A stretch of DNA of 41,325 bases from a virus. The notes below the pieces were generated by a model. That model made no database searches, had not been told where the DNA came from, and saw only the letters and a list, made by a program, of their open reading frames with translations. The translations under genes were made by a program, and so were the position numbers. Numbering within the stretch: the first letter of the stretch is position 1; each line of letters starts with the position of its first letter. Of the stretch, positions 3,130-32,164 are shown one piece after another. The stretch is from IMG/VR virus record IMGVR_UViG_3300045988_032064, positions 1-41,325 of that record; one strand, 5' to 3'.

Positions 3130-3690
3130 ATGTTTACTCAGATTTCGTCTGAGGCTTTCAAAAATATTCAGCGTGGAGCGGGCATGATCCTGAACAAATT
3201 TGACCCCGCAAATCCTGCAAAGCCTGCGGACGCGGACATTGTGTGCGCCACCACCGGCGGCATTCAGGCCAGCTGCGTGGCGAACTACGTTGATGACGGC
3301 GAGGACATTGACAATGTGCCAAACAACACCAAGGAACTGAAGCAGCTGGAAAGCTGGGAGTGCAAAATGAGCTTCACGATGGTAACCATGACCGCCGCCG
3401 CACTGAAGCTGGCTCTTGGCGCTGCTACCGTCAGCGGAAACAAGATTGTTCCCAAGGCCGCACTGGAAAGCACTGATTTTACCGACACGCTGTGGTGGGT
3501 TGGCGACATGGGCGACGGCGGTCTGGCCGCTATCTGCCTGAAAAATGTGCTGTCTTCCGGCGGTTTCAGTTTGCAGACCACCAAGAACGGCAAGGGCCAG
3601 GTCAGCGTGGAGCTGCTGGGCCATGTTTCCATTTCCGCACTGGACGAAGTTCCCATGGAATTCTATGTGCAGGAAAACATTGCAGCGTAA
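3130..3690 (+). CDS. Major tail protein
   Basis: SD aggaggg. 186 aa, directly upstream of the chaperone pair and the tape measure. Confidence 0.7.
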   Translation: MFTQISSEAFKNIQRGAGMILNKFDPANPAKPADADIVCATTGGIQASCVANYVDDGEDIDNVPNNTKELKQLESWECKMSFTMVTMTAAALKLALGAATVSGNKIVPKAALESTDFTDTLWWVGDMGDGGLAAICLKNVLSSGGFSLQTTKNGKGQVSVELLGHVSISALDEVPMEFYVQENIAA

Positions 3691-3702
3691 AGGAGAAAAG
3701 AC

Positions 3703-4041
3703 ATGAAATTTCTGTTTGATTTGCCCAATGAGCAGCTGCTACCCGCAACTTGCGACCTTGCCGACGCTGTGGAGCAGCTTGTCAAGGTAAGCAATATTAT
3801 GGCGCTGCGTACTCCCGTTGCAGATGGAGAAAACAAGGAAACTGTTGCAAAGCGGAATTTTAAAAAAATTTATTTCCGGCTTTGCAAAGAATACCCCAAG
3901 GAGACCGGCGCTGTGCTGGATAGGTTGTGGGTGCTGGAAGATGGCGAGAAAGCGCCGAACGCCATTGTGACGGCAAGTATTGTGCTGTTACGCAAGGACG
4001 TTATCAGTTTTTTTACATCGTTGCTTCAGCTGGCGCAGTAA
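3703..4041 (+). CDS. Tail assembly chaperone (G-like)
   Basis: SD aaaggag. 112 aa, between the major tail gene and the tape measure. A slippery site lies near its 3' end. Confidence 0.75.
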   Translation: MKFLFDLPNEQLLPATCDLADAVEQLVKVSNIMALRTPVADGENKETVAKRNFKKIYFRLCKEYPKETGAVLDRLWVLEDGEKAPNAIVTASIVLLRKDVISFFTSLLQLAQ

Positions 4042-19603: not shown

Positions 19604-20710
19604 TTATTTTTCGTTTCCATTTGCGTTGCCAATTTGGCGGTTTTTAATGGCCTCTGGGGCAAAATAGTCAGTGAATTCACGGGAACGTTTGGCGATATCC
19701 TGTTCCGCCAAATGGGTATATATTTTGTGCATAGTCCCCAAATCTTTCCACCCGCCGATCTCCGCCGCCATCATCTCCGGGATGCCCATATGGTAGGCCA
19801 GCGAGGCGAAGCTATGGCGCAGACCGTGCATACCGACTTCCGGAAGGCTGTTTTCTTGGCATATCTTGTTGATGTGCTTAAACAGTGTACACGTGGCGGC
19901 GTTGACAACAAATTCTGAATCCTTTGGGGCCGCCATAAGTGCATCGTAAAGGGGCGGGATCATAGGCACCGGGCGGCGGGATTTTTTGGTTTTGTTCTGC
20001 GGCTTTAGCTTCAGCCCGTCCTCCCCTCTCACTTTAGCGCCACGAACATAGATTGCACGGTTTGCAAAGTCCACATTTTTCCAGGTGAGGCCCAGCATTT
20101 CAGAGCGGCGGAGGCTGGACAGGCACAGGAGCGCCGGTATCTCAATGGGCTGGCCCTTTACGGCCTCTACAAAGATATCAATCTGTTCCGGCTCCAGGAA
20201 GGGACGCTCATTCTCTTCCTTCTCGAAAAGCACCACTTCCGGTTGCCTGCCTGTTTCTTTTTTGATAGCCGCCGACATGAGGCCCCAGGCGTTCTTGATG
20301 TACTTAGAGGAACGGCCCAGCTTCTTTTCCTCGTCAATGGCTTGCTGCCAACGTTGATCTGGTGTCGTGTACACGTTGTATCGCATAGCAGATTGAAATG
20401 TGTTATTTCGATAGCGGATATAGCCGTATACCGTGGATGGAGACCGCCTCCCACGGCGCACCAGGTCCCTGGTGCTGTCGATGTAAGCGTCCACCGCCTC
20501 CCCCAGTGTCACCCGGTTCTGCCCTCCCTGGCTCTTGGATTCCATCACGCCGCTTTTCACGGCCAGGTACTCTGCCACGCATTCTTCGGAGCTATCCTTT
20601 GTGATGGACACCCGGCGGCCATCCACCAGTACCCTGGTGTGCCACGCCCCGGAAGGAAGCTGCTCAATCTTGGGCAGGCGGATATCCGGTGCTTTCTTTT
20701 TTCTTCCCAT
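19604..20710 (-). CDS. int: Tyrosine integrase
   Basis: 368 aa. LSSLRRSE, HGLRHSFAS and IYTHL form the catalytic R...HxxR...Y pattern. Adjacent to the tRNA fragment. Confidence 0.9.
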   Translation of the reverse strand: MGRKKKAPDIRLPKIEQLPSGAWHTRVLVDGRRVSITKDSSEECVAEYLAVKSGVMESKSQGGQNRVTLGEAVDAYIDSTRDLVRRGRRSPSTVYGYIRYRNNTFQSAMRYNVYTTPDQRWQQAIDEEKKLGRSSKYIKNAWGLMSAAIKKETGRQPEVVLFEKEENERPFLEPEQIDIFVEAVKGQPIEIPALLCLSSLRRSEMLGLTWKNVDFANRAIYVRGAKVRGEDGLKLKPQNKTKKSRRPVPMIPPLYDALMAAPKDSEFVVNAATCTLFKHINKICQENSLPEVGMHGLRHSFASLAYHMGIPEMMAAEIGGWKDLGTMHKIYTHLAEQDIAKRSREFTDYFAPEAIKNRQIGNANGNEK

Positions 20711-22014: not shown

Positions 22015-23550
22015 TCAATCATCTTCCTCATCCATACCGTCCTCCGGATTTTCGGATACCACGGTGATAGACTGACTTTGCCGGTATTGCTCTGCAACCA
22101 TTGTCCGCCGGAATTCTGCGGTAGGCTCTAGTTCCGTTACCAGCTGCTCCAACTCATCAATGGAAATGCGGAAGAATTCTTTCCGAAGATTTACCTTATT
22201 GACACGGCGATTATTGAGTATTTTATGAATCTTGTTTTCAAGCCCGACGGCATCATCCGAGAATATGAAGCTATGAACATCAAATGGGAACGGAACGCTT
22301 GCGCTACCCAATTCATCCACACGATCCTGCGGCTCCGCACGGCGTGTCATTCCAATTTTGAACACATCATCACCGAATGCTCCCAAGTTGCTGATTACAT
22401 ACACATTGCCGGCCTTACCATTCTGCAATGTGATGATTTGTTCCTTCTTTTCCTCCACCTGTGCCTTCTGAGCTTGAAGCTCTTTCAATCTGGCTTCCAG
22501 CTGTGTAATCTTTTCCACATCAGAGGTGGCGTGTAATTGCTCCTGCACCTGATTGATCTGATCGGTGTACTTAGCTTCTTCCTTCTCTACCTTCTTACGC
22601 TCTGCCTCCAAAGCCCTGCGTTCTTCTGCTTCCTGACGCATCTGTTCTCGGATTGCCCGCTGCTCTTCTTTGGCCCGTTCCTTTTGAACATAATACTCAT
22701 ATTCGATATGGATAGATTGCCCAAAAAGATATTCCAACTCACCGATAAATTTACGCATGGTGGGCGCAATGCTCTGGTTTCCATCAGCGGCAATCAAATA
22801 GAATTTCTGCATAAACTCTTTCATCTGATCCACAGACTTTTCCAGATTTCCAAATTTCAGATTAGCAAGGACATTCTGCAATTCTGAAATTGCGGCTATG
22901 GTAGTGAGTGCGTAGATTGCGGAGTTGGCCTTGGTGGTGTAGCGTGCCTTGTACTTATCAAGAACTTCCAGTATCAGCTTTTCGTTTTCTTTGTACCGCT
23001 TGCGAAGGTCCCGCATACCAAGGCATTGCAATTCAACCTTTACGGAAGGAGACAGTAAATCGTCCAATTCCGACAGCAGTCTAGAGATTTCTTCCGGAGA
23101 CTCTGGATAATCCGTAGCAGACATATCAATGGCATTTTGAACGGAAGAAAGCAGCTCCTTGAATTTGCGAATTTTCTTATCTACTGACGCAACACTCTTT
23201 TCAGACTTCCGTTCTGCTTCCATTGCAATCAGCTGCCTTGATTCCGCTGCTGTTGCCTGGGAAAGATTTTCTTGCAAAATCCTCTTTGATTCTGCAATTT
23301 TATCGGCCATTTCTTTTTCCGCTTGTTTGACACCGTCTTGTCTGGCTTCTTCGGCTAACTTTTTGTATGTCGCTTCACTATCGGAGAGCTCTTCAGAAAC
23401 CCTATCCAGTTCGCCTTGAAGAATATCTTTCTTTTCCGAAAGTGCTTTTATTTCCTCTTCCACTTTGGTAGTGGCTACACAGTTACTACACAATCCATTT
23501 TCAAGTTTCAAGAAAAAGCCTTTTCGACCACACCTGCTACACTTTGGCAT
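22015..23550 (-). CDS. Zn-ribbon / long coiled-coil / T5orf172 (GIY-YIG-like) protein, DUF4041-type architecture
   Basis: N-terminal CSRCG...CSNC, about 330 aa of coiled coil, and a C-terminal GNVYVISN...FKIGMTRR...RVDELGSASVPFPFDVH. ATG 23550 is preferred over GTG 23559 because of SD spacing. Confidence 0.75.
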   Translation of the reverse strand: MPKCSRCGRKGFFLKLENGLCSNCVATTKVEEEIKALSEKKDILQGELDRVSEELSDSEATYKKLAEEARQDGVKQAEKEMADKIAESKRILQENLSQATAAESRQLIAMEAERKSEKSVASVDKKIRKFKELLSSVQNAIDMSATDYPESPEEISRLLSELDDLLSPSVKVELQCLGMRDLRKRYKENEKLILEVLDKYKARYTTKANSAIYALTTIAAISELQNVLANLKFGNLEKSVDQMKEFMQKFYLIAADGNQSIAPTMRKFIGELEYLFGQSIHIEYEYYVQKERAKEEQRAIREQMRQEAEERRALEAERKKVEKEEAKYTDQINQVQEQLHATSDVEKITQLEARLKELQAQKAQVEEKKEQIITLQNGKAGNVYVISNLGAFGDDVFKIGMTRRAEPQDRVDELGSASVPFPFDVHSFIFSDDAVGLENKIHKILNNRRVNKVNLRKEFFRISIDELEQLVTELEPTAEFRRTMVAEQYRQSQSITVVSENPEDGMDEEDD

Positions 23551-23665
23551 TGGCAACACATCCCTAATCTATAAATTTATTTGCGAAAGGAAGAAAACGC
23601 TATGACAACCGAACAAATTGCGGCCATCTACATGGATTTACCGGAGGAAAAACAGGAAAAATTTG

Positions 23666-30532: not shown

Positions 30533-30718
30533 ATGACAGAAAAACCTAAGACCAACGCAGACCGCATCCGGGAGATGACGGACGAGGAGTTGGCAAAGCT
30601 GCTAAGTACCGGAACATTTATCTGCGGGAGGCTTGAAGATGTCTGCGAGGATATGCCAGGGTGCGAGGAGTGTCTATGGGCCTGGCTCCGGTCACCGGTG
30701 GGGGAAAGCGAGAAATGA
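30533..30718 (+). CDS. Hypothetical Cys-rich 61-aa protein
   Basis: SD gaaagga. Confidence 0.55.
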   Translation: MTEKPKTNADRIREMTDEELAKLLSTGTFICGRLEDVCEDMPGCEECLWAWLRSPVGESEK

Positions 30719-31326
30719 TCCACCTTGGCGACATAACCAAAATCAACGGTTACACTGCTCCTGTTGTGGATGTGGTCATCGGCTGTAGCCCCTGCCAAGA
30801 CCTGAGCATTGCCGGAAAAAGGGCCGGCCTTGCCGGAGAGCGGTCAGGGTTGTACATGGAGAAAATCAGAATCATCAGGGAGATGAGAGCGCATGACAGA
30901 GCAAATGGACGGACAGGTGAGCTTATTCGCCCACGATACATGGTCTGGGAGAACGTCCCCGGAGCGTTCAGCTCCAACCACGGAAAAGACTTTGCCGCAG
31001 TCCTCGAAGAAGCGGTCAGGGTCATCGAGCCGGAAGCCCCCCCTGTTCCTGTGCCTGAAAAAGGATGGCCTACAAGCGGATGCCTCATGGGTGACGGATG
31101 GAGCGTTGCTTGGCGGGTACTCGATGCACAGTTTTGGGGAGTGCCCCAGAGACGGCGTAGAATCGCACTTGTCGCAGATTTTGGAGGTCTCACCGCACCC
31201 GAAATACTATTTGTCCGCAAGGGCTTGTCGGGGGATCCTCAACCGGGCAGCGAGACGAGGAAAAGACCTGCCGGAAGCTCTGAAAGCGGCGCTGCTTATG
31301 CAGTCAGAATCCGGGGGGGGCTGTGA
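30715..31326 (+). CDS. DNA (cytosine-5) methyltransferase, catalytic-core part (motifs III-VIII), lacking motif I
   Basis: ATGA-coupled start. GDIT, GCSPCQDLS (PCQ 30790-30798), ENV (30949-30957), QRRRR (31147-31161). Confidence 0.75.
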   Translation: MIHLGDITKINGYTAPVVDVVIGCSPCQDLSIAGKRAGLAGERSGLYMEKIRIIREMRAHDRANGRTGELIRPRYMVWENVPGAFSSNHGKDFAAVLEEAVRVIEPEAPPVPVPEKGWPTSGCLMGDGWSVAWRVLDAQFWGVPQRRRRIALVADFGGLTAPEILFVRKGLSGDPQPGSETRKRPAGSSESGAAYAVRIRGGL

Positions 31327-32164
31327 CGGAGGCGGTAAAGGAGCCTTAGTACAAAAAGAGCTTTCCGGGACTTTGGGTTGCAACAACGACCAGACGGTTT
31401 TCTGCCTCAACGACCAGGGCGGAAGAGTGATGGGCGTGACCGAGAATGTTTCCGGCACACTCCGGGCGCAGGAGCACGGGCACCAACCCCTTGTGACAGT
31501 GTTTGACCCGGCGCAAATCACAAGCCCTGTGAATCGTAGCCGCCCGGAGCCTGGGAAACCCTGCCACACATTGACCTCCAGAATGGGGACCGGTGGCGGA
31601 AACGTGCCAATTATGTTCCGGCAACAGCGCTTTGGGAGCTACGACCTGGACAACGTAGCCGGGACCTGCCAGGCCAGGGACGGCAAGGACGGAACCGCAA
31701 ATCTTGTGTGCGCCGTGGACTGCCGGCATGGAACCGAAAACCCGGATACAAACGGGACGCTGCAAGCAAAATCCACGGGTGGCCAAAGCCTGAACCTGAA
31801 CAACGTAGTCCGAGAGGCTATGACGGTTCGCCGGCTGACCCCCCTGGAGTGTGAGCGCTTGCAGGGATTCCCGGACGGCTGGACGGACATCGGTGAATGG
31901 GTGGACGGCAAGGGTAAGAAACGAAAAACCACCGATTCTAGCCGATACAAAGCTCTTGGCAACTCCATTGCTTTACCGCCCTGGAAATGGGTGCTGAAAC
32001 GGATTTGCGCCCAGTATGAGCGTGATGCAACCATGGCAAGCCTTTTTGACGGGATCGGCGGATTCCCGCTTATCTGGGAGCAGCTGAACGGAAAAGGGAG
32101 CTGCCTGTGGGCAAGCGAGATTGAAGAGTTCCCCATGGCGGTAACGAAAAAAAGGTTTGGCTAG
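30893..32164 (+). CDS. C5-methyltransferase part 2: TRD + motifs IX/X + displaced motif I/II; true 5' end unresolved
   Basis: RRLTPLECERLQGFPDGW, ALGNSIA, then MASLFDGIGGF...WASEIEEF at the C-terminus. The 5' 434 nt overlap the previous ORF in the +1 frame. Confidence 0.7.
   Translation: MTEQMDGQVSLFAHDTWSGRTSPERSAPTTEKTLPQSSKKRSGSSSRKPPLFLCLKKDGLQADASWVTDGALLGGYSMHSFGECPRDGVESHLSQILEVSPHPKYYLSARACRGILNRAARRGKDLPEALKAALLMQSESGGGCDGGGKGALVQKELSGTLGCNNDQTVFCLNDQGGRVMGVTENVSGTLRAQEHGHQPLVTVFDPAQITSPVNRSRPEPGKPCHTLTSRMGTGGGNVPIMFRQQRFGSYDLDNVAGTCQARDGKDGTANLVCAVDCRHGTENPDTNGTLQAKSTGGQSLNLNNVVREAMTVRRLTPLECERLQGFPDGWTDIGEWVDGKGKKRKTTDSSRYKALGNSIALPPWKWVLKRICAQYERDATMASLFDGIGGFPLIWEQLNGKGSCLWASEIEEFPMAVTKKRFG
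31313..31320. repeat. G8 homopolymer at the junction of the two methyltransferase reading frames
   Basis: ccgggggggg read directly. The frame-A stop TGA lies at 31324-31326. Confidence 0.9.

Follow-up and report, generated by a model that had tools for sequence, protein, structure and literature searches.

Rearranged, Split and Switching C5 Methyltransferases

Natural circularly permuted C5 cytosine methyltransferases, namely M.BssHII, M.Alw26I, M2.Eco31I, M.Esp3I and M2.BsaI together with 22 REBASE enzymes, are all broken in the variable region (Albert et al., PMC5944983). The same authors built permuted enzymes of a 'Class B' (cp62M.MpeI, cp58M.SssI), whose new N-terminus falls between motifs II and III (PMC5944983), and the 2018 paper described this engineered order as absent in nature. 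The II/III breakpoint was not found among natural enzymes in two surveys (PMC5944983; bioRxiv 10.1101/2023.12.13.571470), and a 2025 topology classification holds only canonical and M2.Eco31I-type topologies for 5-methylcytosine (m5C) enzymes. The methyltransferase gene analysed here occupies positions 30715–32164 of the IMG/VR virus record IMGVR_UViG_3300045988_032064, studied over its full 41,325 nucleotides (nt) and called the window below, and its family, judged by motif order, is a natural Class B permutation. A first-pass annotation of the window had taken the breakpoint to be undescribed; this is right for the natural enzymes of the two surveys and wrong for the engineered cp62M.MpeI and cp58M.SssI.

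Split and variable C5 methyltransferases are also familiar. M.AquI alpha/beta is a naturally split enzyme, divided after motif VIII, with canonical motif order and a short overlap of its two genes. In the multispecific phage enzymes of the SPR/phi3T type, motifs VIII and IX are separated by several target-recognising domains arranged in tandem. In phasevarions, a change in the length of a homopolymer within a methyltransferase open reading frame (ORF) gives an ON state or a truncated OFF state.

Set against these systems, the window locus is probably an orphan C5 methyltransferase gene of a temperate gut phage that is circularly permuted, is divided into two ORFs by a tract of eight G residues (G8), and overlies a conserved second reading frame, here called ORF-B.

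Circular Permutation of the Enzyme

The gene consists of two long ORFs on the plus strand, in frames A and B, which share 434 nt (30893–31326). Frame A is open from its first listed start at 30661, and MIHLGDIT begins at the ATG at 30715. The resulting alpha ORF (30715–31326, 203 amino acids, TGA at 31324–31326) contains motifs III (HLGDIT), IV (PCQ, 30790–30798), VI (ENV, 30949–30957) and VIII (QRRRR, 31147–31161), followed by a variable linker. The beta ORF (30893–32164, 423 amino acids), which lies in the +1 frame B, comprises the ORF-B segment, a variable region that is the putative target-recognition domain (TRD), motifs IX and X, a linker, and motifs I and II. Frame B carries TPLECERLQGFPD and GNS (31958–31966) and runs without a stop into MASLFDGIGGF...WASEIEEFPMAVTKKRFG (32033–32161, ending in KKRFG), before TAG at 32162–32164. 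Motifs IX (RRLTPLECERLQGFPD, 31829–31876) and X (RYKALGNSIALP, 31943–31978) together span 31829–31978 on the plus strand and are under purifying selection. The linker AQYERDAT, and after it a retained Met, lead into the relocated motifs I (FDGIGG, 32045–32062) and II (WASEIEEFPMAVTKKRF). The first-pass annotation had placed PCQ, ENV, QRRRR, GNS and MASLFDGIGGF...KKRFG correctly.

Profile comparisons recover each part of the enzyme in a displaced position. Frame A maps to columns 46–129 of PF00145 (E 4.7e-24) and frame B to columns 260–322, whereas the last 43 amino acids alone map to columns 4–39 (E 2.6e-4), which bears out the earlier proposal that the first 40 or so columns correspond to 32033–32161. 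Alpha scores 85.9 bits and beta 43 bits, and the single-ORF homologue P0030 reaches 123 bits in four stretches; all exceed the curated PF00145 cut-off of 22 bits. The same split mapping is obtained with PHROG 363 (phrog_363), in which the relocated I–II segment falls on the N-terminal columns 50–95. All of the motifs sought from the PF00145 set of C5 enzymes are present: IV (PC), VI (ENV), VIII (QxRxR), I (FxGxG), IX and X. Over all six frames and the full 41 kb of the window, motif I-like and motif IV-like sites occur once each, in agreement with the first-pass claim that no motif I lies upstream of 30715.

When the last 43 amino acids are placed before the frame-A N-terminus, this de-permuted construct is colinear with residues 8–238 of a canonical 728-amino-acid relative (55% identity, E 9e-75). 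No gap occurs at the junction, where ...AVTKKRFG + MIHLGDIT aligns with ...RVTTKRLPFIKHYGDIT; the two ends are therefore contiguous in a canonical enzyme, as had been supposed. In canonical relatives the breakpoint is the exact point at which ...KKRF(P/G) meets M(I/K)HLGDIT. The order III-IV-VI-VIII-TRD-IX-X-I-II claimed at the outset is upheld by the PF00145 and PHROG mapping and by the de-permuted alignment. It is a real permutation and a trait of the whole family.

Among the best 120 matches of frame B in a collection of 5.8 billion proteins, FDGIGG is C-terminal in all 120, with beta homologues called at 100% coverage and 49–94% identity. About 30 of these homologues are single ORFs of 445–580 amino acids that start with M(I/K/T)HLGDIT, including P0030 (99 member sequences). 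The frame-A half retrieves the same architecture: of 80 IMG/VR loci found with it (L009–L088), at least 68 carry motif I after motif X, and in no locus is it N-terminal. The relocated I–II segment is under ordinary purifying selection, with a diversity of about 0.05–0.29, 0.01–0.22 and 0.47–0.59 at codon positions 1, 2 and 3, respectively (65 distinct sequences). An origin by tandem duplication, which would account for the retained Met, is plausible.

The same motif order is found in the cultured Faecalibacterium phage FP_Toutatis, where the enzyme is annotated as two 'DNA methyltransferase' genes. The frame break of this gene (L178, NC_047915, 1105–2516) differs from that of the window: the first coding sequence (CDS) holds motifs III–VI followed by the C part of ORF-B, and the second ORF starts at motif VIII. 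Either true variation or an error in the sequence of the RefSeq record could account for this break.

A G Tract That Joins Either Frame to the Downstream Half

The first-pass annotation had proposed a fused polypeptide, which does not exist in the window: the G8 tract (31313–31320, plus strand) sets the two halves in different frames, and frame A stops at 31324–31326, two codons past the tract. The tract encodes Gly-Gly in both frames, and its length settles whether the downstream half continues frame A or frame B. How frames A and B join was overlooked in that annotation, as was the fact that the overlap at 30893–31326 is a conserved coding feature. In silico, the loss of one G yields an ORF of 482 amino acids that is 89.6% identical to P0030 over 481 amino acids without a gap. 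The nearest full-length DNA relative among the loci compared (L001), which has seven G residues (G7), differs from the window gene by one gap in 1438 nt.

In relatives sharing the module CAGTCnGAnTCn-Gn-CTGTGACGG, G7 corresponds to a frame-A single ORF and G8 to the two-ORF state. A census of IMG/VR contigs gives G6 in 1, G7 in 46, G8 in 15 and G9 in none. Homopolymer length within the ORF differs between otherwise identical sequences and shifts the frame, as in phase-variable loci: one G8 contig (L181) has 600-nt flanks identical to those of three G7 contigs (L209/L216/L225), and two others (L192/L195) have 600-nt flanks identical to those of a G7 contig (L229). One cluster at ≤3% distance contains 11 G7 and 7 G8 members, and G8 is polyphyletic. 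The tract is a genuine, recurrently switching site. The third frame (G6/G9) is almost never seen, unlike what a plain ON/OFF switch would give, so both architectures seem to be tolerated.

A phase-variable OFF state, in which G8 inactivates the enzyme, only G7 revertants methylate, and alpha and beta are functionless by-products, is unlikely. It is favoured by an in-ORF homopolymer with length alleles between otherwise identical sequences, a design classical for phase-variable methyltransferases, and by the unusual GCSPCQ sequence of the window's alpha. However, other out-of-frame lengths would then be expected about as often, while G6 and G9 together account for one contig and G8 for 15. Moreover, alpha is intact in diverged G8 lineages, with 203–206 amino acids and PCQ, ENV and QRRRR in 20 G8 loci. 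Frame B is also coupled to the downstream half in lineages that have no G tract (..LLMQSENAECGWNKP.. and L041), and a canonical-order gene (L089) is split.

Recoding, by which the G8 allele would yield a single chain because the polymerase slips on the G tract or the ribosome shifts there by +1, is improbable. Long homopolymers do promote polymerase slippage, and the frame-A stop follows the tract by just two codons; against this, a stimulatory element was not identified, the tract is more simply accounted for if both frames require Gly-Gly, and the G7 allele already exists in the DNA. A related product, joining motif VIII to LSQILE by a +1 ribosomal shift, is excluded because the same nucleotides (31157–31190) encode both, so that one chain cannot hold the two. 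A start of beta near the G tract was likewise rejected, there being no conserved ATG or GTG at that place.

The G8 tract has a counterpart in a C7 tract (31037–31043, plus strand), which encodes Pro-Pro in both frames and forms a second slippage-prone site. These two are the only G/C homopolymers of at least 7 nt in the gene, both lie in the overlap, and the window has only three tracts of this kind in all, these two included. If Gly-Gly and Pro-Pro are required at matching positions of the two frames, the overlap would force runs of G and of C; in this way it generates slippery sites of its own. At the C tract, P0265 from the database passes out of frame A into frame B, and other variants switch at the G tract.

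Dual Coding in ORF-B

ORF-B comprises 141 codons of the +1 frame (30893–31315, plus strand) and overlies motifs VI–VIII of alpha. In its start region (30877–30895, plus strand), a Shine–Dalgarno (SD)-like AGGGAG (30877–30882) is followed by a frame-B stop, TGA (30884–30886), and by the ATG (30893–30895). This arrangement recurs in the permuted clade, where 49 distinct contexts always have ATG, GTG or TTG two to three codons past the frame-B stop. An SD-like motif is found upstream in all 49 (AAGGAG, AGGAG or GGGAG in 46, the weaker GAGG or AGGA in 3), at a spacing of 10–13 nt in 44. ORF-B is open in 85 of 87 loci across motifs VI–VIII, where the +2 frame has six to seven stops. Because openness of the +1 frame is weak evidence, synonymous-site and codon-position tests were used instead.

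The codon-position analysis of 69 distinct sequences of the permuted clade reveals a change of frame along the gene. Over 30715–31164, diversity peaks at the third positions of frame A; over 31165–31224 it is low at all three positions; and over 31225–31299 it follows the order of frame B, with 0.50 at the third position, 0.29 at the first and 0.23 at the second. The same flip to a frame-B signature is seen in 42 frame-A-fused loci that have no G tract.

At conserved four-fold sites of frame A, diversity in the permuted clade decreases from 0.587 upstream to 0.399 in the N part of ORF-B (p 9e-4) and 0.166 in the C part (p 3e-4). The canonical, non-permuted sister clade (55 distinct sequences) behaves alike: all 55 contain a nested +1 ORF of about 135–143 codons, and four-fold diversity is 0.573 upstream, 0.377 in the N part (p 1.5e-4) and 0.177 in the C part (p 1.7e-6), with a value of 0.610 directly past the ORF-B stop, which is not significant. 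The constrained C part (ESHLSQILE..PHPKYYLSARACRGILNRAARRGKDLPEALKAALLMQSE, 31154–31312, plus strand) contains three predicted helices. Furthermore, an exhaustive HMMER search found 3165 clusters (50% identity) with the ORF-B peptide, nearly always at a predicted N-terminus. By these comparisons of sequence, ORF-B is a real, selected coding sequence that is present throughout the wider enzyme family.

A gene with an unusual reading of this kind is L089 (72–1815), which has an 80-codon insertion between motifs V and VI. The insertion is of low complexity in frame A, and in frame B it forms a repeated TRD-like module (..MPCLRARERGGG.. twice). That it is protein-like in frame B suggests that this frame is translated there from far upstream.

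ORF-B in Distant Phages and Its Possible Role

With the C part of ORF-B as a tblastn query, 133 phage records were matched, each under an annotated C5 methyltransferase gene. In the seven records checked, the match is offset by 1 (modulo 3) from the annotated CDS in all seven: P1 dmt, Vibrio 1.009.O, Mycobacterium Porcelain, Streptococcus Javan102, Akkermansia Chantilly, Pseudomonas UF_RH7 and Roseobacter CRP-821. The three records with ORFs listed (P1 dmt, Vibrio 1.009.O and Mycobacterium Porcelain) have nested ORFs of 147–162 codons, ending in ..SEWPNDA..LSQVLE..P.KY(Y/F)LS.KAC.GILRRA.KRGK.LP..L..AL. Over the last 62 codons, identity is 49–59% in frame B compared with 32–56% in frame A, even though the frame-A stretch includes motif VIII. 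ORF-B, at 66713–67201 of NC_005856, is unannotated in the P1 record, and literature searches turned up nothing relevant on a gene that overlaps P1 dmt or other methyltransferase genes.

Comparison of ORF-B with Pfam, NCBIfam, PHROGs and PDB, using single sequences and a profile, gave no meaningful match. In the AlphaFold model of beta, only the C part of ORF-B reaches a predicted local distance difference test (pLDDT) score of 64–73, as three helices, while residues 1–97 look disordered. By hhalign, the ORF-B profile aligns with the stretch directly behind motif VIII of Dcm-type enzymes: P is 3.9e-4 with a probability of 36% against a 43-sequence profile, and 0.062 against E. coli Dcm alone. 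It may be inferred that the helical C part of ORF-B fills the role of the segment after motif VIII in ordinary C5 enzymes.

It is highly doubtful that ORF-B is untranslated and that the synonymous constraint marks an RNA or DNA element within the gene. Such an element would agree with the lack of a protein family or structure match and with the merely moderate constraint on the N part. However, the constraint starts and stops at the ORF boundaries, and over 31225–31299 it is codon-periodic in frame B, with the third position most variable and the second least. In addition, conservation of the peptide reaches from Firmicutes phages to P1, where frame A has diverged, and a length of 139–162 codons is kept across phyla.

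A Proposed Mechanism and Its Weighing

The permutation, the two frames, the polymorphism of the tract and selection on both frames are established. On the proposed reading, the enzyme most likely methylates phage DNA against host restriction. Its chain starts at motif III, with motifs I and II (the S-adenosylmethionine (AdoMet) loop) placed after motif X, across a large natural clade. With G8, the catalytic half alpha (III–VIII) ends at the tract, and beta, with the TRD and motifs IX, X, I and II, would be read from a +1 start 434 nt upstream, its first 141 codons sharing their DNA with alpha motifs VI–VIII. ORF-B would then be the N-terminus of beta; with G7, it would be a free protein of about 150 amino acids, nested in the gene of a single-chain enzyme.

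In the G8 state, alpha and beta would be expected to associate into an active two-chain enzyme. This outcome is favoured because engineered fragments with the same boundaries complement each other partially, and because M.AquI is split after motif VIII.

A wider proposal is put forward tentatively, with rather more doubt than confidence: the whole P1-Dmt-like family may be dual-coding, with a helical element, the counterpart of the stretch after motif VIII in ordinary C5 enzymes, supplied in trans or in cis, forced G and C tracts that toggle between single-chain and two-chain enzymes, and a permuted scaffold in the gut-phage clade. Supply in trans would be by the free protein of about 150 amino acids in single-chain genes, and supply in cis, where the gene is split, by the N-terminus of the half with the TRD. 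L089 would be an example of a 'type B' gene, with the element attached to the TRD half.

Several observations tell against the mechanism proposed for the window gene. The fragments Mpe[62-279] and Mpe[280-61] of M.MpeI complement only partially, and the equivalents from M.SssI do so weakly or not at all (PMC5944983). The openness of ORF-B is by itself a weak argument: shuffles of synonymous codons give about 1.75 stops on expectation, about 10% of them stay open, and the sequences are related. The likeness of ORF-B to the Dcm segment is modest, a lead and not a proof. Both AlphaFold2 predictions were too poor for a fold search, with a mean pLDDT of 33 for the single-chain form (P0030 and 29 homologues) and of 38 for the window beta (43 homologues); they failed because of too little alignment depth, and at such scores no Rossmann core or alpha/beta interface is seen. 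Finally, the window alpha has GCSPCQ, a private Gly-to-Cys change (codon TGC, 30787–30789) before the S-P-C of motif IV. The two positions before S/T-P-C are GG in 136 of 151 relatives, FG in 14 and GD in 1, so that the Gly is kept in 150 of the 151, and the change may weaken or kill catalysis in this particular phage.

Two further explanations hardly survive. A homopolymer error in sequencing or assembly, with a true G7 single ORF, would suit the error-prone nature of homopolymers and the G7 state of the nearest full-length DNA relative, but it is very improbable, given that G8 was assembled independently many times: in the nearest protein relatives P0001–P0005 (90–94% identical; Logan, ENA and NCBI), in P0044 on 6 contigs from several samples, and in 15 IMG/VR contigs. 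A decaying pseudogene left by a tandem duplication, as the frameshift relative to single-ORF relatives and the Gly-to-Cys change beside the catalytic loop might suggest, has just as slender a chance, since both halves retain all catalytic and AdoMet motifs, purifying selection acts across the family, and no further stops or indels are found relative to L001.

Variable Region and Insertions in Relatives

The variable region of the window gene (31321–31828, plus strand) contains the short 'TL' modules SGTLGC, SGTLRAQ, CHTLTSR and NGTLQAK, which are putative target-recognition modules. Among relatives, the modules CLQGNGIDRADTAGCNGKGW.., CAGFKLGNSEQARSIGY.., LCLNDQGGxVMG.., ILDMSHACDVIR.. and TVFDPAQITSPVNRSRPEPGK.. 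are present or absent independently of one another, a mosaic that is expected of shuffled target-recognition domains. The variable region would be the TRD of the enzyme.

Insertions interrupt the gene in some relatives. Two beta homologues (P0012/P0189) have an in-frame insertion of about 170 amino acids with an HNH endonuclease domain (PF13392), located between the motif IX sequence RLQGFP and GWTDIG; it resembles an insertion of the homing-endonuclease or intein kind. In Mycobacterium phage Schatzie (L179, 327–1850), a methylase from this family carries the annotation 'coding region not determined; unable to determine intron boundaries', and an HNH endonuclease gene (827–1444) lies inside it. 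This is probably a methyltransferase gene interrupted by an intron.

Genomic Context

Immediately upstream, a small ORF (30533–30718, plus strand) encodes 61 amino acids that belong to no family, and its TGA overlaps the ATG of MIHLGDIT (ATGA). This overlap marks the true 5´ end of the methyltransferase gene, so that no part of the enzyme lies upstream. The ATGA junction is also present in L001 and L002. In L002 the gene upstream of the methyltransferase (3204–4004) encodes a DUF7666 protein in which the nonapeptide GDRGAASAT is repeated in series. This gene is unrelated to that of the window and nevertheless shares the ..VEESEK* / ATGA ending, which indicates that the junction travels with the methyltransferase.

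By gene content, the window genome is that of a temperate, siphovirus-like phage, with an integrase at 19604–20710 (minus strand) and a large terminase at 36040–37287. A 514-amino-acid protein with C-terminal T5orf172/MUG113 (GIY-YIG-like) domains (22015–23559, minus strand) adjoins the integrase region. A replication module with DUF1064 and DUF6291 genes is located directly upstream of the methyltransferase. About 0.7 kb 3´ of it lies a Lar-like restriction-alleviation ORF (32898–33110), a weak PF14354 match (E 2.6e-4) below the cut-off, and L001 has a Lar-family call at the same relative position. No restriction gene was found among the scanned genes neighbouring the methyltransferase; together with the early, anti-restriction location, this fits an orphan, protective enzyme.

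Significance

A topology broken between motifs II and III, the most active when engineered and thought to be missing in nature, is common in phages of the human gut, and a permuted enzyme already sits unrecognised in RefSeq (FP_Toutatis). Automatic annotation systematically misdescribes such genes, either as the frame-B ORF alone or as two 'DNA methyltransferase' pieces. Moreover, a conserved hidden reading frame is revealed within a widespread enzyme family that includes classical phage P1, a tractable system. The locus also offers a natural case in which a single DNA tract selects either the single-chain or the split form of an enzyme, which is relevant to the engineering of split methyltransferases for targeted methylation.

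Comparison with Known Systems

The closest likeness is to the Class B constructs, which share the new N-terminus between motifs II and III, the joined native C- and N-termini, and the order III..X-I-II. However, those constructs are laboratory versions of CG-specific Mollicutes enzymes, whereas the present family is natural, phage-borne and abundant, and has an overlapping +1 ORF. The M.BssHII/M2.Eco31I type (Type H; 'class F' in bioRxiv 10.1101/2023.12.13.571470) is likewise a circular permutation of the ten motifs in functional bacterial enzymes. Type H is defined by a break in the variable region, with IX–X before I–VIII and two structural domains left intact, and the window gene falls outside it: unlike Type H, its family is broken inside the large domain, between motifs II and III.

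As in M.AquI, the window enzyme is encoded by two ORFs, but here the order is permuted, the overlap of 434 nt is coding sequence that has been conserved, and a G tract toggles the split. Two ORFs are also found in the 20 G8 relatives, in the canonical-order L089 and in Mycobacterium phage Porcelain. Compared with phasevarions, the full set of motifs is obtained in two frames out of three, in a single chain or in two, and the third is almost never seen.

The C5 domain of P1 Dmt and related orphan C5 methyltransferases of phages and prophages belong to the same family as frame A (VWENVPG, WR.LDAQ..GV.QRRRR) and have a nested +1 ORF with ..LSQVLE..P.(K/R)Y(Y/F)LS.KAC.GILRR..KR.K.LP... P1 Dmt differs in its canonical order, its fusion to a Dam domain and the absence of a G-tract switch. 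Nested genes of the lambda Rz/Rz1 type (reviews: PMC8227390 and PMC3494269) also combine an embedded +1 ORF with suppression of variation at synonymous sites. Unlike Rz/Rz1, ORF-B sits in the catalytic core of its host gene (VI–VIII), is conserved in phages of different bacterial phyla, and may form one ORF with that gene's downstream half.

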